Shown here one piece after another: positions 1,412-17,797 of a stretch of 64,000 nt of DNA. The DNA comes from Candidatus Aminicenantes bacterium. GTDB lineage: Bacteria > Acidobacteriota > Aminicenantia > JAMOAD01. Location of the stretch: NCBI GenBank assembly GCA_027067555.1, contig JAMOVU010000191.1, positions 6,750 to 70,749 on the forward strand. Direction: 5' to 3'. The notes under the pieces are model-generated. The model saw nothing but the letters and a program-made list of their open reading frames with translations. It made no database searches and was not told the origin of the DNA. The position numbers and the translations under genes are program-made. The first letter of the stretch is position 1. Each line of letters opens with the position of its first letter.

Positions 1412-4400
1412 TTATGCAGCCGTAAGTTTTTCAGCTATTTGCTCTGCCTGCTCAAGCACTGTTTCAGTCGCAAGTTTTTGCATATCAGGAGGATAGCCAT
1501 ACTTCCTGAGTGTTCTTTTCACTATTACCCTTAATTTTGCCTTTGCACTTTCCCTGATTGTCCAGTCTATGGAAGCATTCTCTTTAACCTTCTGAAACAA
1601 AACCACAGCCAATTCGCGTAATTTTTCCTTTCCCATTAATTCAACAGCACTCTTATTATTTGCCACTGCAGAATAAAATGCATACTCCTCTTCACTCAAG
1701 CCCATTTCCTCAGGCTCTTTATCGGCTTTTTGTATTTCTTTTGCTACATCAATAAGCTCTTCAATGAATTGAGCAGCGGTAATTATTTTATTGTGATATC
1801 TTTTGATAGCATTTTCCAGCATTTCCATTAAAGAACGACTCTGAACTATATTTTTTCTTGCTCTGCTCTTTATCTCATCATTTAATATTTTTTTCAGAAC
1901 CTCCATTGCGATATTCTTATGTTTCATATTTTTTACTTCAAGTAAAAACTCTTCGGACAAAATCTCAATATTGGGCTTTTTTATCCCGGCAGCATCAAAT
2001 ATATCCACAACCTCATCCGATACCAAAGCTTTGTCTATTACCTGTTTTATTGTTGTCTCCAAATCAACCCTTCCCTCTTTGCCCAGAAAAGATTTTGAAT
2101 CAAATTTCACAAGGCGTGATTTCACAGCCTGAAAAAAAGCCACTTCATCCTTAACCAATAGTGCTTCCTCATGAGGTATTGCAATCGCAAATGCCTTTGA
2201 TAATGCGGTCACCTCATCTATATATCTTTTTTTGCCATTCTCCAGTCCCAGAATATGTTCTTCGGCTTCCAATATTATATTCAGCTTTCTTGATGTATCG
2301 GCTTCAAAGTACTCCCTATAATTAAAGCCGAAAAACATCTGCCTTACAATCTCCAGCTTTTCGCTCATTACCATCACTGCTTCTTCCTGAGCAATGGCAG
2401 GTTTTCCTCTTCCACCGCCATCAGCATAAAAAGATAGTGCCTCTTTCAAATCCGAAGCTATTCCCAAATAATCCACAATAAGCCCGGCCGGTTTGTCCTT
2501 GTAAACTCTATTTACCCTTGCTATAGCCTGCATCAGGGTGTGGCCCCTCATCGGTTTGTCTATATACATTGTATGCAAAGATGGCACATCAAACCCTGTA
2601 AGCCACATGTCCCTTACAATCACAAGTTTTAATTCATTCTCCGGATCTTTCATTCTGTCAGCAAGTCTTCTCCTTTGCTCTTTTGTCGTATGATATTTTG
2701 CCATCTTAGGGCCATCCGAAGATGCTGCTGTCATCACAACTTTTATAAATCCTTTGTCCAAATCATCACTATGCCACTCGGGCCTGATTTTAATTATTTC
2801 CTCATACAAATCCACAGCTATCCTTCGGGACATTGCCACAATCATGCCTTTACCATCCATCACTGACAATCTTTCCTCAAAATGCAAAACTATATCCTCA
2901 GCTATTCTTTTTATCCTATCCTTACTTCCTATCAATGCTTCCAATCTGGTCCACTTTACCTTTGCTCTCTCCGTATCAGCAAGCTCCATCCTTGCAAGAT
3001 CCTCGTCCAATTCTTTTATTAATTTTTTCCCTTCCTCCGATATTCCCACCTTTGCGAGCCTGCTCTCATAATAGATAGGCACAGTCATTTTATCCTCTAC
3101 GGATTTTGAAATATCATATACATCTATATAATTCCCAAAAACAGCCGGTGTGTTCTTATCATCTTTTTCAATCGGAGTTCCGGTAAATCCTATATATGTA
3201 GCATTTGGCAGGGCATCTCTCATATACTTTGCAAAACCATACTTGATTTCACCTGTTTCCCTATCCACTTTGCCTTTGAAACCATACTGTGTTCTGTGTG
3301 CCTCATCAGCTATTACAACAATATTACTTCTATCTGATAATTTTTCATAAACATTCCCTTCCTCAGGATGAAATTTCTGAATTGTTGTGAAAACTATACC
3401 CCCTGAAGCAACTTTCAAAAGGTCTTTCAATTCTTTCCTTGTCTGCGCCTGTCTGGGCTCCTGCCTCAAAAGTTCTTTTGAAGAAACAAAGGTTTCAAAC
3501 AATTGATCATCCAGATCATTTCTATCGGTAATTACAACAATAGTCGGATTATTCAATAATTGAATAATCTTTGCAGTGTAAAAAACCATGGAGAGAGATT
3601 TTCCGCTCCCCTGAGTATGCCAGATAACACCTGCCTTTTTGTCTCCCACCGGTTGTTCAAAGGTGCTCCTTAATCCGTAAATTTCAGGATCTATTTTTAC
3701 AAAATCATATCCCCCTCTATTGATTGCACTTGCCCTTAAAGTTTCTCTTACGGCTTTGTTGACAGCATAGTACTGGTGATAAGCGGCAATCTTTTTATCC
3801 AATTTTATTGTAATTTGCTTTGTTTTTTCATCCTCTCTGGAAGATCTGTTAAATACAATAAAATACCTCAAAAAATCAATCAATGTGGTTTTATTTAACA
3901 AACCTTTAATTAGTATCTCCATTTGATTTACAAGAGGGGAGGATTCTGCAATACCATCGGAAGATTTCCATGCCATAAATCTGTCCCATCCGGCGGACAG
4001 ACTTCCAACTTTTGCATCAAGTCCATCCGATATGATAATCATTTCATTAAAAACAAATAATGAAGGAATAGTTGCTTTGTATGTTTGAATCTGCCTGAAA
4101 GCAGACATTAATGTAGCATTTTCATCCGCAGGATTTTTCAGTTCAAATACACCAATGGGGATTCCATTTATGAATAAAACTATATCAGGCCTTTTATTTA
4201 CACCATTTTCTATCACAGTGAATTGATTTACAGCAATAAATTCATTATTTTCGGGTTTTTCAAAATCAACAAGCCATACAATATCCCCCCTTTCTTCTCC
4301 ATCCTTTCTATAAACAACCTTTACCCCTTCTGTTAACAAGCGGTGAAAATTCTCATTGTTAACCAGAAGATCGGGGGAATTAGCCCTTTGCAATTGCCTT

Positions 4401-4627
4401 AATACATCATTTATGGTGTTTTCGGGTATATCAGAATTTATTCTACGAATAGATCGAATCAATACATCATAGAGTAAGACAGTATCATAAGTATTGCGTT
4501 TTTTTACAATAGTGTTTGAGACATCCGAGTCAGGAGCAATATCAGGACCGAAAACATAATCCCATCCGAGAGATTTAAGGAGTTTTATTGCAAAATTTTC
4601 GATATCGTTTTCAATTATTTTTGACAT
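1412..4627 (-). CDS. hsdR: Type I restriction enzyme R subunit (HsdR), 1071 aa
   Basis: Typical HsdR N-terminus MSKIIENDIENFAIKLLKSLGWDY, Walker A TQGSGKSLSMVF, DEAH box VIADEAHRTQ, SF2 motifs, and a C-terminal helical domain. Confidence 0.95.
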   Translation of the reverse strand: MSKIIENDIENFAIKLLKSLGWDYVFGPDIAPDSDVSNTIVKKRNTYDTVLLYDVLIRSIRRINSDIPENTINDVLRQLQRANSPDLLVNNENFHRLLTEGVKVVYRKDGEERGDIVWLVDFEKPENNEFIAVNQFTVIENGVNKRPDIVLFINGIPIGVFELKNPADENATLMSAFRQIQTYKATIPSLFVFNEMIIISDGLDAKVGSLSAGWDRFMAWKSSDGIAESSPLVNQMEILIKGLLNKTTLIDFLRYFIVFNRSSREDEKTKQITIKLDKKIAAYHQYYAVNKAVRETLRASAINRGGYDFVKIDPEIYGLRSTFEQPVGDKKAGVIWHTQGSGKSLSMVFYTAKIIQLLNNPTIVVITDRNDLDDQLFETFVSSKELLRQEPRQAQTRKELKDLLKVASGGIVFTTIQKFHPEEGNVYEKLSDRSNIVVIADEAHRTQYGFKGKVDRETGEIKYGFAKYMRDALPNATYIGFTGTPIEKDDKNTPAVFGNYIDVYDISKSVEDKMTVPIYYESRLAKVGISEEGKKLIKELDEDLARMELADTERAKVKWTRLEALIGSKDRIKRIAEDIVLHFEERLSVMDGKGMIVAMSRRIAVDLYEEIIKIRPEWHSDDLDKGFIKVVMTAASSDGPKMAKYHTTKEQRRRLADRMKDPENELKLVIVRDMWLTGFDVPSLHTMYIDKPMRGHTLMQAIARVNRVYKDKPAGLIVDYLGIASDLKEALSFYADGGGRGKPAIAQEEAVMVMSEKLEIVRQMFFGFNYREYFEADTSRKLNIILEAEEHILGLENGKKRYIDEVTALSKAFAIAIPHEEALLVKDEVAFFQAVKSRLVKFDSKSFLGKEGRVDLETTIKQVIDKALVSDEVVDIFDAAGIKKPNIEILSEEFLLEVKNMKHKNIAMEVLKKILNDEIKSRARKNIVQSRSLMEMLENAIKRYHNKIITAAQFIEELIDVAKEIQKADKEPEEMGLSEEEYAFYSAVANNKSAVELMGKEKLRELAVVLFQKVKENASIDWTIRESAKAKLRVIVKRTLRKYGYPPDMQKLATETVLEQAEQIAEKLTAA

Positions 4628-5306
4628 AGTATTTGTCTTCCTCCCATTTTAAAGGGTTGCTAATAATGTATTCTGCGATTTTCAAATAATCCTTTTCATC
4701 CCTAATAATATGTTCATAATAATTGCGCTGCCAGATTCTTTTTTTAAATGGAGGTAAAAGGTTTTGTTTTACCATTTTTATATATTCAACCGTGGTATAT
4801 CGTTTAAATGTTTGCACGATTTTGGGCAATGATACCTTCTCGATTATTTTACCTTTCGGAGGGATGGATTCCATATCCAACCGTTTTGTTTTTATATTTA
4901 TATTCCGGGCAGAAATTGATTCTGCCCCTACGGATAATTCGATAATTTCTACAATGGCATGAAAATGGTTGGGCATTATTATATATTCATGCAATCTTGC
5001 ATTTGGAAAAATTTTCGGTATTTTCAACCAAATTTTTTCTATCATCTTTCCCGCATCATTCAAAATTATTTTATTTTCAACAATTTTACCAAACAATTCA
5101 ATCCTGCCTTGTGTACATATTGTAATATAATATAAACCCGATTGCGAATAATCATAATTTTTTAATCGGATGGAATGGCGGCGGGGGAGAGGGCGATTGT
5201 GTTTTCTGGTCATGGGAATACCTCGTTTTTGATTATTCTTTGTTTTTCCAATTTTTGCATGGGTAATTTCTGAATTACCTGTATAAAACATTTTGATTTT
5301 TTCCAT
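4611..5306 (-). CDS. REP-associated tyrosine transposase (RAYT) / IS200-family Y1 HuH transposase. It carries an in-frame REPIN insertion. The true start is probably the internal Met (MTRKHN...).
   Basis: HuH motif NHFHAIVEI, SLPKIVQTFKRYTT, and the catalytic Tyr region WQRNYYEHIIRDEKDYLKIAEYIISNP. Between EI and IPPK there is a 26-aa segment (IELSVGAESISARNINIKTKRLDMES) encoded by a REPIN copy. Confidence 0.8.
   Translation of the reverse strand: MEKIKMFYTGNSEITHAKIGKTKNNQKRGIPMTRKHNRPLPRRHSIRLKNYDYSQSGLYYITICTQGRIELFGKIVENKIILNDAGKMIEKIWLKIPKIFPNARLHEYIIMPNHFHAIVEIIELSVGAESISARNINIKTKRLDMESIPPKGKIIEKVSLPKIVQTFKRYTTVEYIKMVKQNLLPPFKKRIWQRNYYEHIIRDEKDYLKIAEYIISNPLKWEEDKYYVKNN
4858..4930. repeat. 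REPIN copy inserted inside the RAYT coding sequence (in-frame, ~26 codons)
   Basis: gGAGGGatGGATTCCATATCC...GGGCAGAAATTGATTCTGCCCCTAC matches the island repeat. The left arm is degenerate. Confidence 0.75.
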
Positions 5307-5590
5307 GATTTTTCAAACCATTCGTAGGGGCGGATTCCATATCCGACCGTTTGGGTTCCATGTTCACATTTTCGGGCAGAAATGGATTCTGCCCCTACGG
5401 TGTTTTTAAATGGATTGTGATGGGATGGTTTGTTTGTATGTAACCATGATTTTTCAAACCATTCGTAGGGGCGGATTCCATATCCGCCCATTTGGGTTTT
5501 ATATTTATATTTTAGGGCAGAAATGGATTCTGCCCCTACGGGGTTTTTAAATAAATTGTGATGTGTTGGTTTGTTTGTTTTGTTGTTATG
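5303..5590. repeat. Two tandem REPIN-like units (leader, REPIN, tail) between the RAYT and the helicase gene
   Basis: GTAGGGGCGGATTCCATATCCG...GGGCAGAAATGGATTCTGCCCCTACGG occurs twice with the conserved tail GTTTTTAAAT.GATTGTGATG.GWTGGTTTGTTTGT. The ORF at 5210..5734 is a translation artefact (VGAESISA.K...GYGIRPYEWFEKSW occurs twice). Confidence 0.85.
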
Positions 5591-5730
5591 ACAGGGTAAT
5601 TTCTTATAATTGGGTGGTTTGGGAATTGCCCTTATGGATTGGGCATTTATTATTCTTAAAAGATAAATTTTATCAATTATATTGAAATTAAAACCGTCAT
5701 TATAATATACAAACATAAAATCAAAAACTT

Positions 5731-7932
5731 TCACAAATTCCCCTTTATCTTCTCAATTTCGTATTTTAAAAAAAGATGCGGTCTTTTATTTATCAAGCTA
5801 ATAACTTCTTTTATTAATTTTTCATCATTACTTATTTCTTCTAAATTAATTTCATTTTTTATTTTTTCTATTGCTGATTTTGGAATGCCATATTCTAATA
5901 ATACAGATAATTTTTCAGGAACAAAATCATTTTCTAATAATGTTGCATAATAAGCATAGTCTCCTGCTTCCAAATTTTTCTTTTCACAAACAAATTTTTG
6001 AATATTATTGACGACATTTAACCATTTGGGAACCTTAAATTGAAACCAATGTCTGAAAATATTAAAAACATCTCTTATAGCTTCATTAAACAACTCATTG
6101 TCATTATATTTTGAGAAATAATTTTTTTCTTTATAGTATGTATAATTTGATTTTATTAAAAAAAGAATATCCTTATTAACAGTATAATCAAAAGTTACTT
6201 TTATTAGACGTTTTTTAGTCATGGGTCTAGTAGTTTCTCCTGATCTAAGTAAATTATCCCATGATAATTCTATCAAATAGCTTAGCTGTTGATAGTTTGG
6301 TATCCCATTCCAAGTTATTAAATTTTGTTTTCTCTTAATATCTTTATATAACTGTTCCAAAATCCTTTTCTGTCCCCAAACAGAAACACCGTTTTTCCTG
6401 AATAACTCTCTTTCGTCGTCAGTTAACTCACTCAATTTTTTATATTGCTCAGTATTTTTTACGATATCTTTTACATCATTTTTATGTAATGTTATTAATA
6501 CTTCATCTTCAATAGGTTTTTGCTGATAAAAAGGTATATCGATAATTAATTTTTCTTTTTTAGGTGGCGGGTTAAAATTATATATTTTCCCAATATAGTG
6601 GATCATAAAACGTCCAGCTCTGCCTTTAATATTAGAGTAATCAAAAAAATCAATAGATTTTCTATTCCCTTTGGTGTTATCAAAAAAAACGATATTTTTG
6701 GCGCTTGTATTTACACCTTCAATTAAAGTAGTAGTACAGAATAAATATTTTAGTCTTCCTTCATTAAAATAATCTACAATTGAAGAATTAATATGTTTAA
6801 TTAGTGCACCATCATTTATGCCAATACTATATTCTAAAATTTCTATTAGATTCCAATTAGTATGTACATTTTCTTTTATCCATTCAATTAATGGCAACTC
6901 ATGATCTATCTTCTTTTCTACTTCATTATTTTTTAAATAATTACAAAACTTCCATGCCAAATCTCTTACTTTTTTAGGAGAAGAACAATAAATAATAAAT
7001 TGTTCTTTTTCAGTATTCAATAACTCAAATAACACATGTTCTTTATATTGTTTCTTTTCCCCACGACTACCAAACTTTTTTTTATGTTCCAAATAGACAT
7101 CTATTATTTTTGATTCAACTAATTTGTAATCAGTTTTGTAAAATACAGCATTGTATTTTTGTGCAAAACCTTCAGAAATCCCATCTATATTTGGACCTAA
7201 TAAATAAAATTTTGGATTGTACTTTTTTAGTAATTTGTAAAATGCATTATTTAAAATATAGGCTCGCTCATCATCTCGTTTTTGGCTTAATTTATAGAAC
7301 TCATCTATAATAAGAAAATCTATTGGTGGTAAATTGGGATATTCCATTACTCGTTCCGCAGTTAATAAAAACAAATTACCTTTATCAGTAGCAGGTTCTT
7401 GTGTTGTTTTGACAATAATTTTATATCTTTCCTTGTATCTTTTTAGTTTTTTTCTAGTCTCATCCAACAAAGCTAAAGTTGGTTGTATTACCACTATATT
7501 CTTATATTTTCCGCTTGCAACAATCTCTTCGATTAATAAACTTTTGCCAAAGCTTGTAGGAGCACTAACTATTAAATTTTTATCACTTTCCAAAATATAT
7601 TTGAGTATTTTTTGCTCTTCATGAAGATAGATATTCTCTAAATTTTCTGATAAATGAAACTCCTTTCTTATTTTTCCATCTATTGTAGATGGTTCACCTC
7701 TTTCTTTTTTTAAATATGGATAAAAACCTGCCATTTCTACTATGTCAAACCAAATATCCTTAGTATGTTCAGGGATTTTTTTGAAGTTCTCTAAAATATA
7801 AATGAGTAATCTGTGACCTAAGTTTTCATTATTTCGTAATTCATTAGCACAAATTTTGGCATAGCTAAAACTTTCATCAACAGATATCGAATCTTTGCTC
7901 TCTATATTTTTTATTATCGCTTCTATATTCAT
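5731..7932 (-). CDS. SF2 (DExH-type) helicase, 733 aa. HamB-like partner of the upstream nuclease-like protein (candidate Hachiman effector).
   Basis: Motif I-like LIVSAPTSFGKSLL, motif II FLIIDEFYKL, motif V-like FCTTTLIEGVN and motif VI IKGRAGRF. There are long N- and C-terminal extensions. The start overlaps the stop of the 338-aa ORF at 7932/7933. Confidence 0.6.
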   Translation of the reverse strand: MNIEAIIKNIESKDSISVDESFSYAKICANELRNNENLGHRLLIYILENFKKIPEHTKDIWFDIVEMAGFYPYLKKERGEPSTIDGKIRKEFHLSENLENIYLHEEQKILKYILESDKNLIVSAPTSFGKSLLIEEIVASGKYKNIVVIQPTLALLDETRKKLKRYKERYKIIVKTTQEPATDKGNLFLLTAERVMEYPNLPPIDFLIIDEFYKLSQKRDDERAYILNNAFYKLLKKYNPKFYLLGPNIDGISEGFAQKYNAVFYKTDYKLVESKIIDVYLEHKKKFGSRGEKKQYKEHVLFELLNTEKEQFIIYCSSPKKVRDLAWKFCNYLKNNEVEKKIDHELPLIEWIKENVHTNWNLIEILEYSIGINDGALIKHINSSIVDYFNEGRLKYLFCTTTLIEGVNTSAKNIVFFDNTKGNRKSIDFFDYSNIKGRAGRFMIHYIGKIYNFNPPPKKEKLIIDIPFYQQKPIEDEVLITLHKNDVKDIVKNTEQYKKLSELTDDERELFRKNGVSVWGQKRILEQLYKDIKRKQNLITWNGIPNYQQLSYLIELSWDNLLRSGETTRPMTKKRLIKVTFDYTVNKDILFLIKSNYTYYKEKNYFSKYNDNELFNEAIRDVFNIFRHWFQFKVPKWLNVVNNIQKFVCEKKNLEAGDYAYYATLLENDFVPEKLSVLLEYGIPKSAIEKIKNEINLEEISNDEKLIKEVISLINKRPHLFLKYEIEKIKGNL

Positions 7933-8949
7933 TTATATCCCTTGAATCTTTGAAAGTTTCCTATGCAATTCTTTCACTAATTCGCTTTTATTAGGAACGG
8001 GGAAAAGCATTACAATAACATTTAAATCAGAATGAATAGGTTCTCCTGAATTTTTATATTTCTTTTGTAACTCTTTAAACTTATTATAGAATATTTCTTT
8101 AAGATACCTTATTTCTCTTTCATATTCTCTAATAAATTCTTCATTTTCATCATTTGTATGGTTTGAAAAGACTTCAGATGTATATGTACACAACAGAGGT
8201 ATTGTTACAGATGAAAACAAATCTTGTAATTTACCATTTTGATTTGCAACTCTGTCCAATTCATCAAACCAATATTCTTTTTGTCTTAAAAATTCTTCAT
8301 ACTGATCTTTTGTATTTAAGTCGATATACTCTTCAAGTTTCAAAAAAGCGTTTTTTTTCTTCCCAATTAGCATAAACTCTCTTTTTAAGAAATCTTTTGT
8401 AAAATGTTCTTCAATATCATTTAATAACGCTTCTACCCCTTTTTTACCGTCTTTATATAACTTAGATTCACCAAGATAAATTGAACTACAGTCAGATTTC
8501 CTTAAATTAGGTCCAATATGAATTGCATCAAAACCATGCACTGTTATACCATCAGAATCCTTAAAGTATATTTTTGATACCAAAGGAACTGTATTAATAA
8601 AATCTCGCAAGATAAGATGTAATATCAATTCACCAAACTCACCTCGTTTTAGATATTTTTCCTGAATATCATCTTCGTACTCACCATTATTTTCTAAATA
8701 TGTTTTTTTTGATTGTTTAAAAACCTCTATTTTATATAGAGATTGAGCCGCCTCTTTTAATATTTTTCTTGTATAAGTCTGTTTTATACCCTCATGAAAT
8801 CCAAAAACAAAATCCACTAAAACATCCATCAATATATTTAATAAATCATCAAGTCTATATTTACCAAAATCGAAACCAACAAAATACGCTCTAAGATCTG
8901 CTTCTGATATATGCTCGGTAATAACTTCTTCAGAACCAAAAACACTCAT
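7933..8949 (-). CDS. PD-(D/E)xK nuclease-like protein, 338 aa (HamA/DUF1837-like candidate)
   Basis: GEFGELILHLIL (helix Glu) ... HGFDAIHIG ... 17 aa ... IYLGESKLY gives the D...ExK geometry. The ORF is wedged between hsdS (4-nt overlap at 8946..8949) and the helicase, so translational coupling is likely. Confidence 0.5.
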   Translation of the reverse strand: MSVFGSEEVITEHISEADLRAYFVGFDFGKYRLDDLLNILMDVLVDFVFGFHEGIKQTYTRKILKEAAQSLYKIEVFKQSKKTYLENNGEYEDDIQEKYLKRGEFGELILHLILRDFINTVPLVSKIYFKDSDGITVHGFDAIHIGPNLRKSDCSSIYLGESKLYKDGKKGVEALLNDIEEHFTKDFLKREFMLIGKKKNAFLKLEEYIDLNTKDQYEEFLRQKEYWFDELDRVANQNGKLQDLFSSVTIPLLCTYTSEVFSNHTNDENEEFIREYEREIRYLKEIFYNKFKELQKKYKNSGEPIHSDLNVIVMLFPVPNKSELVKELHRKLSKIQGI

Positions 8950-10124
8950 ACCTTCACCCTCACCTCCCCACTCATTAATTTTGGCAATAATGTGTCGCGT
9001 AGTTTTTCTAATGTGTGGATTTGTTGTTCGTTGCTTCTGATTTTGTCTAAAAATTTTTTTACTACTGTATGAAAATACAAGGACTTCTTTTCATTAAATG
9101 AAAAGGAGAGTTCAAAAATATCTCGTGCTTTGACTCTTTGATGACTTCCACTGGTTCCGCTTGCTGCGCCAATTAACTCATTAGTTACTTGAATAGATTT
9201 TAACAAATAATAAATAAAGCTAAAGTATTCTTTCTTCTTTGGAAAAACAACTATAAATTCTGTTGAACAAACAGAGTACTCTTTATTTTCAATTTTACCC
9301 CATATTGCCCAAACTCTTGGAAGTCTTGGATTTAATTTTGAGATCAATATTGAATGCTCAAAAACTTTATATTTATTACTTTTTATTTCCATTCCCAATT
9401 CCTTTATTGGTTTTTTCCCTGCGTCAAAAGCTGGAATACTAAAATGCAAGAATTCTATCTCCGGATCTTTGTTAGGCACAATATTTACTTTTTTATGTTC
9501 TGCAATCTCAAATAGCTGCTTCTCCTCCCAATCCTCCTCCGCCTCTTCTATAAACCATTTTCTAAATAGAGTTTCTGCCATGGCTTCTAATGTTTTGTTT
9601 TGGCGGTGGAGGAGATCTATTTTGTCATCAAGGGAGGAGAGGACAGAGGCAATGGCGCGTTGTTCGTCAATTGATTCTGGGATTATCCATTCTGTTTTTT
9701 TCATAAAATTCCATTCGGCTCTTGGCATTCTAGTTCCTGATGCTCCTTTTGTTGCTAAGTCTATAAATTCGTAAGTTGCAAATAAGTAAAACAAAAAATT
9801 TTTATCCGTATTTTCTTTGGGTGCAACTACCCAAATATCAGTAGAACAAATCCCTTTAAACTTAGGATTGTACAATTTCCTAAAATATGGTCTTAATTTA
9901 CCAAATAAAAACTCTTCTTCAGTGAAAATATATTTATTACTTTTAATATCATCCGAAAAACCAATAGTTTTTAATCTTAAAGAAGATTCCTCTATGTGTT
10001 CTAAACCTATATACGGTAATTTTTCATTACCAACTTTCCACGCTCTCTTTAATACCTGTGCTATTTCTTCTAATTTTACTTTTTTCCAACCTTTTAGCAT
10101 TCTTTCATCCATTCTCTGCACCAC
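8946..10124 (-). CDS. hsdS: Type I restriction-modification specificity subunit (HsdS), 392 aa, with two target-recognition domains
   Basis: Conserved central and C-terminal coiled-coil repeats LDDKIDLLHRQNKTLEAMAETLFRKWF and LDKIRSNEQQIHTLEKLRDTLLPKLMSGEVRV. Confidence 0.9.
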   Translation of the reverse strand: MVQRMDERMLKGWKKVKLEEIAQVLKRAWKVGNEKLPYIGLEHIEESSLRLKTIGFSDDIKSNKYIFTEEEFLFGKLRPYFRKLYNPKFKGICSTDIWVVAPKENTDKNFLFYLFATYEFIDLATKGASGTRMPRAEWNFMKKTEWIIPESIDEQRAIASVLSSLDDKIDLLHRQNKTLEAMAETLFRKWFIEEAEEDWEEKQLFEIAEHKKVNIVPNKDPEIEFLHFSIPAFDAGKKPIKELGMEIKSNKYKVFEHSILISKLNPRLPRVWAIWGKIENKEYSVCSTEFIVVFPKKKEYFSFIYYLLKSIQVTNELIGAASGTSGSHQRVKARDIFELSFSFNEKKSLYFHTVVKKFLDKIRSNEQQIHTLEKLRDTLLPKLMSGEVRVKV

Positions 10125-10917
10125 TTTTTATTTCCTCAACATAAGATTTTAGCCATTCGTATTTTTGTTTGACTTTCTCATCTGTACTATTTATATTTTT
10201 TTCAACTATCTCTTCTACTTCCCCTATTATTCGTTCGTAATTACTTTTACTTTCTCTGTTCCATACTATAGAAAATCTTTTATTTTCATTTATTATATTT
10301 TCTCCAATTTTACGTAACACTTTCCTATTCAATAAATCAAGAAAATAGATCCCATCCTTATCTTTTTTGATTCCATTAATAAGAAAACCATCATTTTGTT
10401 TTTCAAGAAAAGGAGATCCTTTTATGTTTTTGTTTTTAATGTATTCAACTAATTTTTCGTCAACTACAATCCTCGGATAAATAGCAATTTCGGATTCAAG
10501 TTTGTAAGCTTCTACCAAGCCAGGACCAATCAAAACATTTTCTTCTTTTTTCGGAAAATACATTTTACCTACTGTTATTGCTCCTCTGAAACAAAATCCC
10601 TTTTCCCAAAATCTATCCTGCAAATATCTGACAATCAAAAAAAGATGAGGTAAATTACGCGGCTCTTTTTTCATTATAAACGCGAAACTATCCGAAAAAT
10701 AAAAACTTCTTATATCCAAATTTCCATCTTTTGATGTTTCTTTGCTTGTAGATTTCGTAATCTTTGAATTGATTTTAATTACCTTAATTATATCTTCTAA
10801 TAACTTTTTATTTTCCCCATTTTCTATCTCTTTTAATAAATTTTTAACCCCCAAAACATCCAAATAGCATATAAAACAATCTTCTAAATTATATTCGCTC
10901 ATTTTAATTTCTCCCAT
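10105..10917 (-). CDS. Hypothetical protein of 270 aa with a class III nucleotidyl-cyclase-like palm-domain signature (possible signalling nucleotide cyclase; uncertain)
   Basis: ICYLDVLGVKNL resembles FADIVGFT. FYFSDSFAFI resembles IGDAYMAVF. FRGAITVGKMYF resembles RIGIHTGPVV. GPGLVEAYKLESE resembles GDTVNLAARLES, but the transition-state Asn/Arg are absent. The ORF overlaps the hsdS start by 20 nt. Confidence 0.35.
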   Translation of the reverse strand: MGEIKMSEYNLEDCFICYLDVLGVKNLLKEIENGENKKLLEDIIKVIKINSKITKSTSKETSKDGNLDIRSFYFSDSFAFIMKKEPRNLPHLFLIVRYLQDRFWEKGFCFRGAITVGKMYFPKKEENVLIGPGLVEAYKLESEIAIYPRIVVDEKLVEYIKNKNIKGSPFLEKQNDGFLINGIKKDKDGIYFLDLLNRKVLRKIGENIINENKRFSIVWNRESKSNYERIIGEVEEIVEKNINSTDEKVKQKYEWLKSYVEEIKSGAENG

Positions 10918-10929
10918 GTTTTGGTTTTT

Positions 10930-11165
10930 TGTTTATTTTATTTTTATATTTTCGGGCAGAAATTGATTCTGCCCCTACGGGGTTTTTAAATAAATTGTGA
11001 TGGGATGGTTTGTTTGTATGTAACCATGATTTTTTAAACCATTCGTAGGGACGGATTCCATATCCGCCCGTTTGGGTTTCATGTTCATATTTTCGGGCAG
11101 AAATAGATTCTGCCCCTACGGTATTTTCAATTGGATTGTGATGGGATGGTTTGTTTGTATCATTA
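10930..11165. repeat. About 1.5 REPIN-like units (a right-half partial copy followed by a full copy) between the cyclase-like gene and the AlbA_2 gene
   Basis: TTTTCGGGCAGAAATTGATTCTGCCCCTACGG, then the tail, then GTAGGGACGGATTCCATATCCGCCCG...CTGCCCCTACGG. The ORF at 10904..11179 is a repeat artefact. Confidence 0.85.
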
Positions 11166-11175
11166 ATTGTTTTAA

Positions 11176-12771
11176 TCATTTTTTATTTTTAACCATTTTT
11201 TCTTCTTTAATCAAAACATAAAATGCCAAACCGCGTTTAGTTAACTTGAATTTTTGTTTCGGACTGTTCAAATTATCTTTAATTGTATGCTCTATTAACT
11301 TAAAGTTATGTAGTTTTTTCAATATTTTATTTAACCCTCCGGAAATAGATTTTTGCCCCAATTCCAAAGAAATTTCTTTACGTGATTTAGGAGAATTCAA
11401 TAATATAAACAATATGCGCAAGAAAAGAGACTCTTGCTCTATCTCTTGCCTCAACTCTTGCCTCAACTCTTGCCTCAACTCTTGCTTTTCATTCTCAAGC
11501 CCGGCTTTTAGCCATCGGATAATTTCCTCGGAAAAAATTATAGATGAAGGGAATAGTTGTCCGTAATCATCTCTGGTTTTTTGTTTTTGGTCCGTAATCG
11601 TTCGTGATTGGGCATAATCGGTTTTTATGAATGTTACTCTGAATGAAAATCCGGGCTCGCTCCATTCCATCTTTATTTCCGGATATTTTTTTAATTCTTT
11701 GGAAATCAGTTTAAGCCCGTTTCCCCATTGCTCTATGATACCGAGCTTTTTAAAAACAGGTGCCAATACCTTATTTCTTATATCTGATTGACCTGATTCC
11801 ATATCATCAAAATCAATGGTAGGCATAAGCTTCCCGGGGCTTGTGATCTCTATTTTATCGTCAAATATGGCAATTTTAATATCTTTGCCTTTTAAAGAAT
11901 AATCTCTGTGAATCACTGCATTTCGTATGAGTTCACGGATTGCTACTACAGGATACTCCCACCTGTCTTTTCTGTAAACTCCCTCATATGAGGAGCCCTG
12001 AGAGATGTGCCTCAAAACAAATTTATAAGCCTCTTCCGCCTGAAAGCTCAACGGAGTTTCTATTGTTTTTTGATCTATGAATTCTCCGGGAATTTTTCCC
12101 TTGAATCTTGCACACTCTATTTTTGCATAAGGAAAAAGTCTTTTCCTGATTTCATCATTTGAAAGTAATACAAGGGCATTTGTGGGAAAATCCCTGTTCT
12201 GATCTGTGATAATCAAGTTCAGTTTTCTTAAAATTGTTTTGGTAAGCTTCTCTCCGGTGATTTCCTCAAATTGATTTCTAAATTGAGAGATGGTTAATTC
12301 ATTCGCTTCTTTTAAATGCACAAGAATAGAATCAAAGGAAATGTTTTGTTTCTGTCTTTCTAACTCTTCAATCATATCTTTGTCCGCAAGGCGGTTTGTT
12401 GAGCCGACTCGGATATAAGTTCCTTTCCATTTTCCCTTGTTTTTCAAATAATAGGGAGGATTGCTTCCTTTGTAAATTCTAACTTTTATAATATGTTTAC
12501 CTTGATAATTTACAAAAGAAATATCGGGCAGTACTATCGGATAGCAATTATCATGAATGATGTTGCTTATTTTTTCTTCCATTGAAATCAACTTTTCCTC
12601 GGAAATTCCTATGATTTTTCTTGGTTCATTTTTTATTCCTATGAAAATCTCACCTCCCGCATCATTAGCAAAAGCAACAACAGTTTTACATAAATCATTT
12701 TTTAAAGGAAGTGTTTCTTTAAATTCAAGCTTTCTTCCTTCTGGCTGTTTTAATAATTCTTCAATTTTCAT
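11176..12771 (-). CDS. AlbA_2 (Schlafen-like) plus HATPase_c_4 ATP-binding protein with a C-terminal wHTH. This is the family often annotated as a RecG-like transcriptional regulator in Type I R-M loci. 531 aa.
   Basis: [11 protein letters not shown]...[19 protein letters not shown] (AlbA_2), [14 protein letters not shown] (HATPase_c_4), and a C-terminal HTH-like segment. It contains (ELRQ)x3 encoded by a 15-bp tandem repeat at about 11440-11490. Confidence 0.75.
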
Positions 12772-14344
12772 TATCTTTTTCCGAATCAGATAAATCTATC
12801 TTTTCAAGATTTTCAAGAATCAATTTGTTTAATCTCTCTTCTTCCTTTAATTGTTCAAGAAATTCTGCCTTTAATTTTGAAAACCTTTCTTCAAAGTCAA
12901 AATCATCATCTTCTTCCGGAAGTCCGACATAACGACCCGGAGTGAGCACATAATCAAGCTCTCTTACCTCTTCTATTTTTACGGATTTGCAAAATCCCTT
13001 TACATCCTCATAGCTTTCATCTCCCCTCTGCCAATTGTGATAAGTATCAGCAATCTTTCTTATATCCTCCTCCGTTAATACACGGGTCCTTCTGTTTATA
13101 AGAGTACCCATATCTCTTGCATCTATGAAGAGAATCTCCCCTTTCCTATTTTTTTTGTTTCTGTTTAAAAACCATAAAGAGGCAGGTATCTGAGTGTTTA
13201 AAAATAGTTTTGTCGGAAGATTGACAATGCATTCGACAAGATCATTTTCAATAATATTCTTTCTTATCTCATATTCTCCTTTGCTTTTTGTGGTTAATGC
13301 TCCTTTTGCAAGAACAAAGCCAGCTCTTCCATTCGGATTCAGGTGATAGATAAAGTGTTGTATCCATGCGTAATTCGCATTTCCCACAGGGGGGACTCCG
13401 TATTTCCATCTGCCATCACTTCTGAGCAATTCTCCGCTCCAATCACTGTCATTGAAAGGAGGATTTGCTATTACAAAATCAGCTTTCAGATCTTTGTGAG
13501 CATCATTCAAAAAAGAGCCCTCAGGATTCCATTTTACCTGAGTTGAGTCAATCTGTCTTATCGCAAGGTTCATTTTACAGAGACGCCATGTAGTCTGATT
13601 ACTCTCCTGTCCGTATATTGATATGTCATCCACTTTTCCCTGATGCTCTTTTACAAATTTTTCGGATTGAACAAACATTCCGCCGGAACCGCAGCATGGG
13701 TCAAACACTCTTCCTCTGTAAGGTTCAAGCATCTCAACAAGTAGTTCAACAACACTTCGAGGAGTGTAAAATTGCCCCCCTTTTCTTCCCTCGGCAAGAG
13801 CAAATTGCCCTAAAAAATACTCGAAAACATGCCCCAAAATATCTGCACTTCTCTTTGTAGCCTCTCCCAGTGCAATATTACCTATCAAATCAATCAAACC
13901 GCCTAAAGACAGAGGATCCAGATTCCCCTTTGCATACACCTTTGGCAAAACACCTTTTAATGATGGATTTTCCTTTTCTATTATATCCATTGCATTATCC
14001 AATATCTTTCCTATTTCCGGATTTTTTGCATTATTAAGAAGGTATGACCATCTTGCTTCGGGTGGGACATAAAAAATATTTTTAGCCCTGTATTCATCTA
14101 TATCTTCGGGATCCGCCCCTTCTTCCACTTTGCTTTTTAGTTTTTCATACAGGTCTTCAAAAGCGTCTGAGATATACCGCAAAAATATTAAACCCAATAC
14201 CACATGTTTGTATTCAGCAGCATCAATATTTTTTCTTAGTTTATCCGCAGCTTTCCACAACTGTTTTTCAAGATTTTCCTCTTTTTCTTTTTTATTCATA
14301 TTGCCCTCTTTTTTTATTTTATCTTTTTTATTTGTGATTGGCAA
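12761..14344 (-). CDS. hsdM: Type I R-M N6-adenine DNA methyltransferase subunit (HsdM). The ORF begins at a TTG; the ATG ([15 protein letters not shown]) 15 codons in is the likelier start.
   Basis: HsdM N-domain [38 protein letters not shown] motif [11 protein letters not shown], and catalytic VIANPPFN. Confidence 0.93.
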
Positions 14345-14353
14345 GAATTAAGG

Positions 14354-14369
14354 GCAATTCGTGAATTGC
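14354..14369. promoter_or_regulatory. Perfect 16-bp palindrome GCAATTC-GT-GAATTGC sitting 10 nt 5' of the annotated TTG start of hsdM, and about 50 nt 5' of the likelier ATG. It is a candidate operator and the right member of the island-flanking repeats.
   Basis: The 7-bp inverted repeat was read directly from the sequence. It lies between an AT-rich -10-like TATTAT and the hsdM start. Its core AATTCRTGAATT is shared with the site at 1386..1397. Confidence 0.4.
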
Positions 14370-14383
14370 ACGCATAATAATTT

Positions 14384-14489
14384 TTGATGTTTTCCATGAT
14401 TTTTTAAACCCTTTGTAGGGGCGGATTCTGTATCCGACCGTTTGGATTTTATGTTCATATTTTCGGGCAGAAATGGATTCTGCCCCTAC
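14384..14489. repeat. Single REPIN-like unit at the right edge of the island
   Basis: Leader CCATGATTTTTTAAACCCTTT, then GTAGGGGCGGATTCTGTATCCGACCG...GGGCAGAAATGGATTCTGCCCCTAC. Confidence 0.85.
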
Positions 14490-14974
14490 ATTGTTTTATC
14501 GAACTCTTTTTTTAATTTTTCAAAGGTTTTTTCTATACCTTCAAACATAACCTTTGTTTCTCCGAATAAGGGCATAAAATTGGCATCCCCTTCCCATCGG
14601 GGAACTATGTGAAGATGAAAGTGATCGGGAACACCGGCACCTGCAGGTCTTCCAAGATTCATTCCAATGTTAAAACCCTGAGGATGATAAACATTTTCAA
14701 GAATCTCAAGGGCTTTTAACATTAAGGTGTTCATCTCATCTATTGTTTCTTTCTTTGCCTTTAAAGGAGAGTCAAGATGCTCATAGGGAGCAATTAAAAG
14801 ATGACCATTATTGTAAGGATAAAGGTTTAAAATTATAAAAGAGTGTTTGCCTTTGAAAAGAATGTATCTTTCTTCGGGTTTTTTATGTTTTGAAGCTTCA
14901 CATAAAAAACATTCCTCGTTATCAAGCCCCTCTTTTATATACTTCTCTCTCCAGGGGGTTACAAGATATTTCAT
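14486..14974 (-). CDS. HIT-superfamily protein (GalT/Ap4A-phosphorylase-like branch), 162 aa
   Basis: The histidine triad HFHLHIVPR is near the C-terminus, and there is an N-terminal CxxC. Confidence 0.7.
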   Translation of the reverse strand: MKYLVTPWREKYIKEGLDNEECFLCEASKHKKPEERYILFKGKHSFIILNLYPYNNGHLLIAPYEHLDSPLKAKKETIDEMNTLMLKALEILENVYHPQGFNIGMNLGRPAGAGVPDHFHLHIVPRWEGDANFMPLFGETKVMFEGIEKTFEKLKKEFDKTM

Positions 14975-15220: not shown

Positions 15221-16943
15221 TCTTTTTGTTCATAATCTCTTTTTTGATAAGATCCCCTATTGTTGTCTTTTGATCAGTGGTTCCCACTTTTCTTAATTGC
15301 TCCATTTCCTTCTTCATCTTCTCTCTTAAAGCCTTTTTATAGCTTAGTATGATTTTTCTGTTTTCCCTATCTATAATCTTGATATAAGCTTCCTTTTCTT
15401 CGCCTACGGAAAGAACTTCTGAAATATCTTCTATTTTTTTTGTTGAAATCTCTCCCTTTCTGATAATGCCCTCAAGACCACCGTCAAGCTCTACTACAAC
15501 AAAGTTTTCCAGAATTTTTTTAACCTTGGTGTTAATAAGGTCACCCTCTTTATACCTGGAGAAAAATTCCGCCCATTTATCACCTTCAAGCTGTTTCACC
15601 CCTAATAAAATTCTTCCGCTATCTTCTTCTATAGAAAGTATAAGAGCTTTTATGACATCTCCTTCTTTGACAACTTCCGAAGGATGCTCAACATAGCCCC
15701 ATCCAAGATCACCCTTTCTTATAAAGCCATCAACATCAGGCATTATATTGACTATAATTCCGCTATCAGCAAGTTTTTTAACTTTTACTTCAACAATATC
15801 ACCTTCTTTGTATGTTGAAAGGAATTTCTCCCATGGAGAAGGCTCAAGCTGTTTTATTCCTATGTAAATTAATCTTTTCTCAGGTATTATATCCAAAACT
15901 TTTCCAATAACCCTATCCTCTATTTCAAAGACAAAATCAAGGGATTTTATCTTTTTGCCCCAGTAAACATCTTCTCCTCTTAACCTTGCATTAACCCCCT
16001 CTTCAAGCTCAACAAGAGCATAGCCCTGTTTAAAACCTATGACTCTTCCCTTTATCTTTGTTCCAATTTTGTACTTTTTGGGAGCGGTAATCCAGGGATC
16101 TTCCTGAAAAGCCTTATAACTTAAAATTATTCTCTCTCTGCTTTTATCCACCTCTAAAACTTTGAACTTATAAGTCTTTCCTATTTTTAATTTTTTTCTT
16201 ATATCGGGAAGATAGCCCCAGGATATCTCACTTTTGGGAACAAAGGCTGTAAGAGATGATTTAAGCTCAACCAGAGCTCCTGCCTTTTTTATTTTTGTGA
16301 CAGTAGCTTCCACCTCATCTCCCACTTTTAAAGAGGAAAAAAGTTTGTCTTTTTCTCTTTTTAAATCCTCCAGAAGAAGAGCTTTTCTTGAGACAACTCC
16401 GCTTTTATTTTTTTCATCAATTCTTATTATTTTAAATCTGAATTCTTTTCCCAAAATCTCATCGGGATTTGAAACAGGTCTTATATCTGCTTGGGAATCA
16501 GGTAAAAAGAGTTCCACCCCCGCATCCACGATATAACCTCTCTTAATTTTTCTTACAACAGGAGCCAGAAGAGGCTCATTATTCTTAAAGTATCTCTCAA
16601 CTTTCTCCCAACCTAAAATTTCATCAGCTTCTTTTTTTGAAAGTACGATTTCCCTTGATGAAATCTTTTTTACCACTGCTTTTATAAAACTTCCCTCTGA
16701 AAAGGGAATTTCTCCTTTATAATTAACGCACTCTTCTATTGGAATGAAGCCTTCCTGCTTATAACCGATATCCACTATTACATCGCTTTGACCAATTTTA
16801 ATAACTTTACCTTCAACCATTTCATTTTTTTTCAGCTGTTTTAATTCATACTGTTCAATCAAATCTTCCATTTTCTCCATCTTCTTCTCCTCATCCTTAA
16901 TTTTGTCTTCTTTTAATTCTCCCATTTGTATCCTTCCCTCCAC
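15213..16943 (-). CDS. rpsA: 30S ribosomal protein S1 (multiple S1 domains)
   Basis: Repeated S1 motifs GxVxxIxxxGxxVDIG...GFIP. The arrangement is ispH-rpsA adjacent and overlapping. Confidence 0.9.
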   Translation of the reverse strand: MEGRIQMGELKEDKIKDEEKKMEKMEDLIEQYELKQLKKNEMVEGKVIKIGQSDVIVDIGYKQEGFIPIEECVNYKGEIPFSEGSFIKAVVKKISSREIVLSKKEADEILGWEKVERYFKNNEPLLAPVVRKIKRGYIVDAGVELFLPDSQADIRPVSNPDEILGKEFRFKIIRIDEKNKSGVVSRKALLLEDLKREKDKLFSSLKVGDEVEATVTKIKKAGALVELKSSLTAFVPKSEISWGYLPDIRKKLKIGKTYKFKVLEVDKSRERIILSYKAFQEDPWITAPKKYKIGTKIKGRVIGFKQGYALVELEEGVNARLRGEDVYWGKKIKSLDFVFEIEDRVIGKVLDIIPEKRLIYIGIKQLEPSPWEKFLSTYKEGDIVEVKVKKLADSGIIVNIMPDVDGFIRKGDLGWGYVEHPSEVVKEGDVIKALILSIEEDSGRILLGVKQLEGDKWAEFFSRYKEGDLINTKVKKILENFVVVELDGGLEGIIRKGEISTKKIEDISEVLSVGEEKEAYIKIIDRENRKIILSYKKALREKMKKEMEQLRKVGTTDQKTTIGDLIKKEIMNKKND

Positions 16944-17797
16944 ACGGTTTCCACATTATCATGGTGTTTTTCTATTTTGCTCACGAGGGCCTTGATTTCA
17001 TAATCCGGAGTTGATGCCCCGGCGCTTATTCCTAATATATTAACACCCTCTAAAAGCTCAGGACTAAAATCTTTCGCTCTTTCTATATGGTATGTTTTTG
17101 GCTGGTATTTTTTAGCTCTTTCATAAAGAGTCCTTGTATTAGAACTATGTTTTCCTCCTAAAATAATCATCATATCAGATTCTTTTGCCAATTTTATTGT
17201 GTCCTTTTGTCTCATTACCGTAGTATAACAGATTGTATCATAAATAAGAGGGTTTGTTGAGTGTTTTTTAATAAAATCTACTATATTTTCAAATTTTTCG
17301 GGATTAAATGTAGTTTGCGCAATAACACCCAAGCTTTTTTTCAGAATATCATCTGAAAGCTCGTCTATGCTACTTATCACTTTTGCATCGGGGCCACCAT
17401 AACCCACCTCTCCTTTTACCTCAGGGTGTTCGGGTTTTCCTATTATTATTGGTAATCTCTTCTCTTCATATATTCTTTTGACAAGTAACTGGGCTTTTTT
17501 TACCAAGGGACAGGTTGTATCCACAATTTTCGCATTCTTTTTTTTCAAGAGCTCCTCTTCCTGAGGAGAGATTCCATGGGTTCTTATAACCACAGTAGTT
17601 CCCGGCTCAATTTTCTCCAGGGAATCAATGCTAAAAACTCCTCTTTTTTTCAAATCTTCCACAACAACTTTATTATGTATAAGTTCTCCGTAAACATAAA
17701 GAGGAGTATTCCCCTTTTCTACCTCTTCTTCAATTATTTTTAAAGCTCTCTTTACTCCGAAGCAAAACCCGGCTTCGGAAGCTACAATAATCTTCAT
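16913..17797 (-). CDS. ispH: 4-hydroxy-3-methylbut-2-enyl diphosphate reductase (IspH/LytB)
   Basis: MKIIVASEAGFCFGVKRAL and the conserved Cys/His pattern of LytB. Confidence 0.9.
   Translation of the reverse strand: MKIIVASEAGFCFGVKRALKIIEEEVEKGNTPLYVYGELIHNKVVVEDLKKRGVFSIDSLEKIEPGTTVVIRTHGISPQEEELLKKKNAKIVDTTCPLVKKAQLLVKRIYEEKRLPIIIGKPEHPEVKGEVGYGGPDAKVISSIDELSDDILKKSLGVIAQTTFNPEKFENIVDFIKKHSTNPLIYDTICYTTVMRQKDTIKLAKESDMMIILGGKHSSNTRTLYERAKKYQPKTYHIERAKDFSPELLEGVNILGISAGASTPDYEIKALVSKIEKHHDNVETVWREGYKWEN

Follow-up and report, generated by a model that had tools for sequence, protein, structure and literature searches.

Does the pair of adjacent minus-strand ORFs at positions 5731–8949 of the 64,000-nt stretch of Candidatus Aminicenantes DNA analysed here (the window) encode a Hachiman defence system, or a divergent nuclease–helicase module that merely resembles one? 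The initial annotation had proposed a Hachiman-like pair, a DUF1837-type nuclease directly 5' of an SF2 helicase, while allowing for a new variant. We addressed the question through profile searches, structure prediction, ortholog alignments, and comparison of gene neighborhoods, all of which point to Hachiman type I-A.

Gene Layout and Family Assignment

Both predicted ORFs are present and begin with ATG: hamA (7933–8949, minus strand) encodes a 338-aa DUF1837/PD-(D/E)xK nuclease, the predicted Hachiman type I-A effector, and hamB (5731–7932, minus strand) encodes a 733-aa Ski2/Hel308-like SF2 helicase, the predicted sensor/regulator. The stop and start codons of the pair, reported earlier as overlapping, do not overlap; the TAA stop of hamA directly abuts the ATG of hamB (...CAA GGG ATA TAA ATG AAT ATA GAA..., a gap of 0 nt), and a 4-nt ATGA overlap is found instead at the hsdS/hamA junction (8946–8949). 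The pair forms a two-gene cassette, with hamA immediately 5' of hamB on the same strand, and this order is strictly kept: each of the 80 genome loci retrieved, from many bacterial and archaeal phyla, has hamB directly 3' of hamA.

Profile scores for both proteins are far beyond chance. HamA matches Pfam HamA/DUF1837 (PF08878) over residues 34–293 with 132 bits (cut-off 25) and PADLOC HamA1 over residues 3–337 (E = 1.5e-103, 344 bits; profile of 310 positions), i.e., over essentially the whole of both protein and profile; 1,147 HamA homologs were retrieved at E ≤ 1e-5, many of them annotated DUF1837/HamA. HamB aligns at residues 9–730 with positions 7–717 of the 719 in PADLOC HamB1 (PDLC00182; E = 2e-234, 778 bits) and is matched end to end by E. 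coli K-12 HamB (8zue_B; E = 7.5e-74, residues 10–701). Pfam finds DEAD, ResIII, and Helicase_C in HamB, the generic DEAD model reaching only 36.5 bits, and the protein belongs to the HamB clade of SF2 helicases rather than being any DEAD/ResIII protein. Together with profiles and synteny, the predicted structure described below bears out the Hachiman reading of the pair.

Cui et al. 2025 distinguish subtype I-A by a DUF1837-only HamA with conserved (D/E)xK residues, and the HamA described here has this architecture: a Pfam search identified no second domain, and there is no extra N-terminal effector domain. Assignment to Hachiman type II was rejected, with HamA2 scoring 173 bits vs. 344 for HamA1 and HamB2 616 bits vs. 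778 for HamB1. Type II systems (PADLOC HamA2/HamB2) carry an extra third gene, hamC; here a REP-array pseudo-ORF and then a RAYT gene come next on the 3' side of hamB, with no conserved partner gene. We therefore hold with high confidence that the locus is a complete and apparently functional Hachiman type I-A system, its HamAB nuclease–helicase pair carried as cargo of a restriction–modification (R-M) operon.

A Type I R-M Operon Surrounds hamAB

A type I R-M operon carries the hamAB pair as cargo, placed between its hsdS and hsdR genes. The operon opens with the methyltransferase gene hsdM (12761–14344, minus strand), which matches NCBIfam TIGR00497 at E = 8.6e-61 with 206 bits, under the curated cut-off of 242.75; in assembly L001, this hsdM gene is listed with the Pfam domains HsdM_N and N6_Mtase. 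The specificity subunit gene hsdS (8946–10124, minus strand) contains two stretches of Pfam Methylase_S, and the last gene is hsdR (1412–4627, minus strand), encoding the restriction/translocase subunit (NCBIfam TIGR00348, 611 bits; cut-off 284.55). Given the 4-nt overlap of the end of hsdS with the start of hamA, hamAB is probably cotranscribed with the R-M operon. A promoter scan was uninformative (58 promoter-like sites between positions 1000 and 15000 vs. 60.7 expected), so we infer the operon structure solely from gene overlaps; terminator-like matches on the plus strand in the same interval are REP hairpins.

Directly 3' of hamB, a doublet of a 141-nt REP-like repeat (5261–5680; families D1–D5 of the repeat search) splits the hamAB block from a RAYT–hsdR block. 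The REP hairpin motif occurs in 8 copies against 0 expected in a motif search, and the repeats found no match in Rfam, which recognizes only three tRNAs in the whole window. A RAYT transposase gene lies downstream of hamB, after the REP-array pseudo-ORF. The hamAB stretch is low in GC (0.26–0.29, vs. about 0.33–0.39 nearby).

Other cargo of the hsd operon in the window comprises an SLFN_AlbA_2 gene and one for a 270-aa protein of no assigned family, on the same strand as the hsd genes; in relatives, the cargo includes Fic, AAA_21, and PDDEXK_3. Genes of the "restriction-linked" kind, such as PrrC and RloA/B/C, are established cargo of type I R-M operons, and the present locus is like those operons in having extra defence genes inserted among the hsd genes, all in one orientation. 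No explicit description of hamAB as hsdS–hsdR cargo was found in open-access papers.

This arrangement raises the question of whether HamAB has become functionally integrated with R-M, the two being translationally coupled and selected to move together as one layered system, in which unmodified invading DNA, cleaved or translocated by the R-M enzymes, would yield ends or aberrant DNA sensed by HamAB, both layers being expressed from the one operon. The 4-nt hsdS/hamA overlap with all genes on one strand would suit such coupling, and the same hsdS–hamA–hamB junction recurs in Sulfurimonas (L006, with a HamA 55% identical and a full hsdM...hsdR operon), in Desulfothermus (L026), and on a metagenome contig (L083). 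Wherever hamA starts within −4 to +2 nt of a same-strand upstream gene, that gene is an R-M gene in every such locus examined, a count over hamA loci that does not by itself demonstrate enrichment relative to other defence systems. The coupled upstream genes are of four kinds, namely hsdS, HsdR (L028 and L084), an MmeI-like type IIL gene (L075), and a Dcm methylase gene of an NgoPII type II system (L088); coupling involves type I operons, where it occurs at two positions, as well as type IIL and type II genes, and is repeated in this HamAB clade. Published work adds that Hachiman responds to DNA damage (PMC12278908) and that protection by a native S. thermophilus island of Hachiman plus type II R-M was far stronger than that by Hachiman expressed on its own from a plasmid; that comparison is confounded by the island's own R-M restriction and a differing expression context, the available text describing no R-M-only control (PMC12322248).

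Several observations weigh against integration. For the majority of the 80 loci, hamA heads a transcription unit of its own (the upstream gap exceeds 50 nt, or the same strand has no ORF upstream), so R-M is not a requirement; on plasmids, E. coli HamAB likewise works by itself (PMC12278908, PMC11914072). Defence genes generally cluster and hitch-hike in R-M operons, and in relatives different genes occupy the hsdS–hsdR slot (AAA_21 in L006, PDDEXK_3 in L090). On balance, we regard functional integration as improbable, though it is the least improbable of the alternatives considered. The nesting of hamAB between hsdS and hsdR, together with tight coupling to several R-M types in relatives, provides natural constructs with which to ask whether R-M cleavage feeds the Hachiman DNA-damage sensor. 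This operon context is the one modest, mildly unusual point of the pair.

REP-like repeats and a RAYT gene immediately 3' of hamB mark a dynamic region, and one might accordingly suspect a decaying, nonfunctional Hachiman remnant. That reading is very unlikely, and three observations speak against it: neither ORF is broken and each matches its PADLOC profile end to end, the catalytic and ATPase residues are all retained, and identical HamA and HamB proteins occur in the independent assemblies L001 and L002. We return, then, to an intact Hachiman type I-A pair and to the features of its two proteins.

HamA Active Site and Fold

The D...ExK geometry proposed for the 338-aa protein is borne out. 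The catalytic core (8461–8631, minus strand) comprises E107 (8629–8631), D141 (8527–8529), E161 (8467–8469), and K163 (8461–8463), all four of which are invariant both in an alignment of 28 orthologs and in one of 79. The string FDAIHIG contains D141, and YLGESK contains E161 and K163; the counterparts of this E-x-K pair are E138/K140 in the ECOR31 protein and E150/K152 in the DEC14B protein.

An AF2 model of HamA (pLDDT 89.3, pTM 0.91) places D141 just before, and E161/K163 within, consecutive predicted β-strands that follow a helix at residues 106–118. The restriction-endonuclease-like α/β core, with D at a strand start and ExK on the next strand, is that of the PD-(D/E)xK superfamily. Foldseek comparison of the model with the PDB returns two significant matches only, and both are HamA: 8zue_A (E = 8e-6) and 8vxy_A (E = 1e-4). 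The predicted fold is therefore that of the experimentally solved HamA proteins, at 10–15% sequence identity. Sequence searches of the PDB with HamA gave no match (phmmer at a threshold of E 0.01; 28-sequence profile at a threshold of E 1), and for this reason the link to solved HamA structures is drawn from the predicted fold. Among NCBIfam models, none matched HamA.

HamB Helicase Motifs

The strings APTSFGKS and DEFY, quoted in the initial annotation as atypical helicase motifs, are present in HamB. APTSFGKS is motif I (Walker A; residues 124–131, 7540–7563, minus strand) and contains K130; all of its residues other than F are invariant in 73 of 73 HamB orthologs, and the F is retained in 72, with Y in the remaining one. 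Motif II (Walker B, DEFY; residues 210–213, 7294–7305, minus strand) is invariant in all 73. Both do differ from the generic SF2 consensus (GxGKT and DExH), but they are the norm for HamB: the K-12 protein reads SAPTSMGKS, with M for F, and IDEFYKL. These strings are a diagnostic signature of the HamB clade here, with no deviation from it.

Motif VI (IKGRAGR; residues 435–441, 6610–6630, minus strand) carries the arginine finger, with G437, R438, G440, and R441 unchanged throughout the 73 orthologs. Across motifs I, III, V, and VI, core positions are invariant and only conservative exchanges occur elsewhere. The ATPase residues K130, D210/E211, and R438/R441 are accordingly all present and invariant in the same set; published work on the E. 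coli and S. thermophilus systems has established that defence needs the ATPase motifs (PMC12278908, PMC11914072, PMC13064477). The regions outside the helicase core, the N-terminal ~110 and C-terminal ~250 residues, had been noted as free of recognizable motifs; both are spanned by the HamB profile match and the 8zue_B alignment given above, and they are family-specific domains.

Could the pair nevertheless be a divergent or new nuclease–helicase module that only resembles Hachiman? The departure of motifs I and II from the textbook forms and the lack of a sequence-level PDB match for HamA had lent this view some appeal. It is refuted by the full-length and very strong matches to HamA1, HamB1, and Pfam HamA, the (near-)invariance of motifs I and II among HamB orthologs, the agreement of the fold with solved HamA structures, and the more than 1,100 HamA homologs, and we consider it extremely unlikely. 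Least credible of all, and equally refuted by profile scores and context, is a housekeeping Hel308/Ski2-like DNA-repair helicase with an associated nuclease and no role in defence: HamB is weakly similar to Hel308, Ski2, Mtr4, and the Pol-theta helicase domain, but NCBIfam yields only sub-threshold Hel308-type matches (NF040935, 39.5 bits vs. a cut-off of 1200), against 778 bits for the HamB profile, the genes are embedded in an R-M operon, in low-GC DNA flanked by REP-like repeats, and orthologs, at 40–60% identity, are patchy across bacteria and archaea and lie beside integrases, prophages, and Zorya.

The Hachiman type I-A locus is thus one more ortholog of the commonest Hachiman subtype, of a kind picked up automatically by PADLOC or Pfam, and the value of the pair is as a clean negative for novelty.

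Proposed Mechanism

By analogy with the E. coli systems, HamA and HamB would form a 1:1 complex, in which the Ski2/Hel308-like HamB may keep the PD-(D/E)xK nuclease inactive while the complex scans intact dsDNA. Phage infection would then generate aberrant or damaged DNA (free 3' ends, ssDNA) as the trigger, ATP-dependent HamB activity would license HamA, and HamA would degrade phage and host DNA nonspecifically, so that infection is aborted. We infer complex formation, trigger, and outcome from what has been reported for HamAB of E. coli and of S. thermophilus (PMC12278908, PMC11914072, PMC13064477). The published systems disagree in detail, and the exact activation step is therefore not transferable with certainty: in ECOR31, the helicase activity of HamB on damaged DNA reportedly frees HamA and switches it on (PMC12278908), whereas in K-12 and DEC14B (PMC11914072) and in S. 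thermophilus (PMC13064477) cleavage is by the HamAB complex and is stimulated by ATP binding or hydrolysis.

Comparison with Known Hachiman Systems

In its HamB, the locus resembles the E. coli K-12 Hachiman (AbpAB; type I-B; PDB 8ZUE; Cui et al. 2025, PMC11914072), whose HamB has 729 aa. The K-12 HamA differs: at 538 aa, it has a Cap4 nuclease domain at its N terminus, and its DUF1837 domain is catalytically dead (PMC11914072), while the HamA described here consists of DUF1837 only and keeps E107, D141, E161, and K163. In this respect, the locus is likened by its description to type I-A of E. coli DEC14B (Cui et al. 2025), a host from a different phylum, in which a DUF1837-only HamA with an active D...ExK is paired with an SF2 HamB. 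The DEC14B system loses defence upon E150A/K152A or Walker A mutation, and its DNA substrates are degraded nonspecifically by HamAB, not by HamA alone; type I-A accounts for 86% of known HamA (PMC11914072).

E. coli ECOR31 HamAB (PDB 8VX9, 8VXA, 8VXC, and 8VXY; Tuck et al. 2024, PMC12278908) is more distant. Its HamB is 1,174 aa long and is assigned by Tian et al. to another clade, III-A, in which HamB contains an OB-fold domain (PMC13064477); it aligns with the present HamB at E = 1e-4 in the C-terminal RecA2 region only. HamB here thus resembles the short K-12 type I-B protein far more than that of ECOR31, while the HamA architecture is that of type I-A, a combination of type I-A HamA and short K-12-like HamB that is represented in no solved structure.

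[quoted passage not shown] 2025, PMC13064477) has a HamB of a different clade from the one described here. In its HamA, six conserved positions, G89, D90, E93, D127, E147, and K149, were mutated to alanine, and all substitutions but G89A abolished defence (PMC13064477); the spacing of these six residues is exactly that of G103, E104, E107, D141, E161, and K163. In both Pez-Ham and the present locus, Hachiman is operon-attached to another module: in S. thermophilus, the partner is the PezAT toxin–antitoxin, which represses Hachiman, and in Candidatus Aminicenantes it is a type I R-M operon.

HamA and HamB form a Hachiman pair

To establish the identity of the nuclease-helicase module, we examined its gene boundaries and compared both products with defense-system profiles. 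Two minus-strand ORFs, a 338-aa DUF1837 nuclease (hamA, 7933..8949) and a 733-aa SF2 helicase (hamB, 5731..7932), lie exactly where the initial annotation had placed the pair (5731-8949), and the strings it quoted (FDAIHIG, YLGESK, APTSFGKS, and DEFY) are all present in the window proteins. The two genes had been described as overlapping; instead, the junction reads CAA GGG ATA TAA ATG AAT ATA GAA, with the hamA stop immediately 5' of the hamB start, so that the genes abut with a 0-nt gap. A 4-nt ATGA overlap is found at the upstream end of the pair, between the stop of hsdS (8946..10124) and the start of hamA.

The proposed comparison with PF08878 and HamB profiles gave strong matches on both sides. 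HamA scores 132 bits against Pfam PF08878 (HamA, formerly DUF1837; cut-off 25). Its alignment to PADLOC HamA1 (PDLC00150; E 1.5e-103) pairs residues 3-337 with profile positions 3-309/310, and that of HamB to PADLOC HamB1 (PDLC00182; E 2e-234, 778 bits) pairs residues 9-730 with positions 7-717/719. Searching with HamA retrieved 1,147 proteins at E <= 1e-5, many labelled DUF1837/HamA, and one protein identical to the window HamA is already in public collections. The HamA profile was also used to retrieve 80 genome loci, and in every one of them hamA is directly followed on the same strand by the gene for a HamB orthologue.

HamA fold and active site

Searches of the PDB with the HamA sequence found no match, either with the single sequence or with a 28-sequence profile; the structure was therefore predicted from the HamA homologue alignment A1 (mean pLDDT 89.3, pTM 0.91). 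Foldseek comparison of this model with the PDB yields significant matches only to 8zue_A (E 8e-6) and 8vxy_A (E 1e-4), both HamA chains; PaqCI is the non-HamA structural neighbor of HamA in both structural papers (PMC12278908, PMC11914072).

Four residues (E107, D141, E161, and K163) never vary among 28 aligned homologues (49-82% identity), nor among 79 HamA sequences from genome loci of many bacterial and archaeal phyla, which bears out the D...ExK geometry proposed earlier for this protein. In the model, D141 just precedes strand 142-147 and E161 and K163 sit on strand 155-165, both strands following the helix 106-118 that carries E107; as predicted, this layout is the classical PD-(D/E)xK arrangement. 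Window residues G103/E104/E107/D141/E161/K163 are spaced as G89/D90/E93/D127/E147/K149 of S. thermophilus HamA, each window residue being numbered 14 higher, and alanine substitutions at those six positions, except G89, abolished defense (PMC13064477). E161-x-K163 likewise corresponds to E138/K140 of the E. coli ECOR31 system and E150/K152 of DEC14B.

HamB motifs are those of its family

Among solved structures, the best match to HamB by far is 8ZUE chain B, the 729-aa E. coli K-12 Hachiman helicase (E 7.5e-74, residues 10-701 aligned). The ~110 residues at the N terminus and ~250 at the C terminus, in which the initial annotation recognized no motifs, fall within both this alignment and the HamB1 profile, and we thus assign them as family-specific, HamB-specific helical domains. 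Weaker structural-database matches to Ski2, Mtr4, Hel308, and Pol-theta helicases agree with published work that places HamB among the Ski2-like SF2 helicases (PMC12278908).

The helicase motifs had been called atypical, and the case for a divergent or new variant rested mainly on them. Across 73 HamB orthologues (44-60% identical), however, motif I (A-P-T-S-F-G-K-S) is invariant save one F/Y exchange and motif II (D-E-F-Y) is invariant; these orthologues also show T-x-E-R (motif III), T-x-T-x-I-E-G-V-N (motif V), and G-R-[AS]-G-R (motif VI). K-12 HamB carries the near-identical SAPTSMGKS and IDEFYKL at the positions of the first two. With motifs normal for the family and full-length HamA1 and HamB1 matches, the novel-module reading is wrong, and the Hachiman reading, supported by the profiles, the HamA fold, and the conserved synteny, is right. 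A housekeeping Hel308 is ruled out, as the NCBIfam Hel308 equivalog requires 1200 bits and HamB reaches 39.5.

The host operon and its repeats

Every gene from 14344 to 1412 lies on the minus strand, and together they constitute a type I restriction-modification (R-M) operon with cargo, an arrangement that recurs on an independent metagenome contig (L001). In operon order, these are hsdM (12761-14344), a 531-aa SLFN_AlbA_2 + HATPase_c_4 protein gene (11176-12771), a 270-aa protein gene (10105-10917), hsdS (8946-10124), hamA, hamB, a REP-associated tyrosine transposase (RAYT)-like gene (4611-5306), and hsdR (1412-4627). GC content falls to 0.26-0.29 across hamAB. The gene of the 531-aa protein shares 11 nt with hsdM; its product resembles pAgo-associated and SIR2-PNTD proteins weakly in PADLOC, and SLFN_AlbA_2-type counterparts stand at the equivalent operon position in L006 (a Sulfurimonas MAG) and L090. 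The 270-aa protein, whose gene extends 20 nt past the hsdS start, has no Pfam or NCBIfam match and no meaningful PADLOC match, and its 119 homologues are all "hypothetical"; since it lies in or beside a type I R-M operon in three of the four contexts examined (L090, L092, and the window itself, not L091), it is a candidate "restriction-linked" gene. Beyond the operon, ispH (16913-17797, minus strand) has two relatives at 75-78% identity, and its homologues from named organisms reach 50% identity at most; the host lineage seems to be uncultured and poorly sampled.

A 141-nt REP-like repeat with two hairpins (GGGGCGGATTCCATATCCGTCC and GGGCAGAAATNGATTCTGCCCC) occurs mostly as tandem doublets (1037-1373, 5261-5680, and 10901-11260); a lone unit stands at 14352-14497 and a partial one at 4844-4933. 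An Rfam search returned no match for the repeat. The second hairpin, GGGCAGAAATNGATTCTGCCCC, occurs 8 times against 0 expected; every copy has the same orientation and lies in the first 15 kb, and the remaining 49 kb is free of it. Between them, the repeats mark off three operon blocks: hsdM + SLFN; 270 aa + hsdS + hamA + hamB; and RAYT + hsdR. The RAYT-like gene overlaps the hsdR start by 17 nt and matches NCBIfam REP_Tyr_transpos in two stretches (68.5 bits, under the cut-off of 80); the partial repeat lies in frame within it (~residues 125-155), separating the HUH half (NHFHAIV) from a C-terminal half matching Y1_Tnp. Three ORFs in the arrays (5210-5734, minus, 174 aa; 10904-11179, minus, 91 aa; 1015-1329, plus, 104 aa) are translated repeats with recurring peptides such as GAESISARKYEH...GGYGIRPYEWF and no family matches; two are annotated as genes on L001, but they are probably not genes.

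Recurrent attachment of hamA to R-M genes

The closest parallel to the window is L006, where an integrase precedes hsdM-SLFN-hsdS-hamA-hamB-AAA_21-x-hsdR with the same junctions (-4 for hsdS/hamA, 0 nt for hamA/hamB) and identities of 55% (HamA), 59% (HamB), 73% (HsdM), and 65% (HsdR). Defining tight coupling as hamA within -4 to +2 nt of the upstream gene, we found it at L006, L026, L028, L075, L083, L084/L085, and L088/L089. The upstream gene is an R-M gene in every such case examined, and it is of four kinds: hsdS (also overlapping hamA by 4 nt in L026, from Desulfothermus, and contig L083), hsdR (an EcoEI-type HsdR gene in L028, and in L084 the hsdR that closes an hsdMSR operon within a prophage of Peregrinibacteria), an MmeI-like type IIL enzyme gene (L075), and the Dcm methylase gene of an NgoPII type II system (L088).

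In L084 (Candidatus Peregrinibacteria, CP065009.1), the hsdM-hsdS-hsdR-hamA-hamB cassette (4175-13285) sits mid structural module, with terminase, portal, and minor capsid genes on one side and major capsid and tail genes on the other, which means that a phage carries R-M and Hachiman as a moron. In L086 (10001-21056), a close HamAB relative (HamA 63% identical) precedes DUF2779, after which comes a Zorya-like operon (ZorA-like, OmpA-like, EH_Signature, SNF2+Mrr_cat), a typical defense island.

The consistency of the upstream partner could reflect functional coupling of R-M and Hachiman beyond coincidental embedding. One study has a weak bearing on this idea, describing a native S. thermophilus island of Hachiman and type II R-M that protected far better than plasmid-borne Hachiman alone, although that comparison mixes synergy with the R-M system's own contribution and expression context (PMC12322248). 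On the other hand, hamA opens its own unit at the majority of the 80 genome loci, Hachiman is effective alone in E. coli (PMC12278908, PMC11914072), the hsdS-hsdR slot holds other cargo in relatives, and among defense systems attachment was counted for hamA alone. We thus treat functional coupling as a minority hypothesis and consider it improbable; the recurrent operonic attachment itself is the only lead that we keep from this locus.

Proposed mechanism and relation to known systems

By homology with published systems (PMC12278908, PMC11914072, PMC13064477), HamA and HamB would form a heterodimer, with HamA inactive alone, that surveys DNA. Aberrant or damaged DNA arising upon infection may then lead HamB, through ATP binding and hydrolysis, to license HamA, which would degrade DNA indiscriminately and abort the infection. 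Among these published systems, both release of HamA and action inside the complex have been described.

The window pair has every testable character of type I Hachiman. Because HamA consists of DUF1837 only and keeps its catalytic residues, it belongs to type I-A as classified by Cui et al., a type accounting for 86% of known HamA (PMC11914072). HamB is close to the short helicase of K-12 (type I-B), and its resemblance to the 1,174-aa HamB of ECOR31 is remote. The pair is thus an uncharacterized but entirely typical type I-A Hachiman system.
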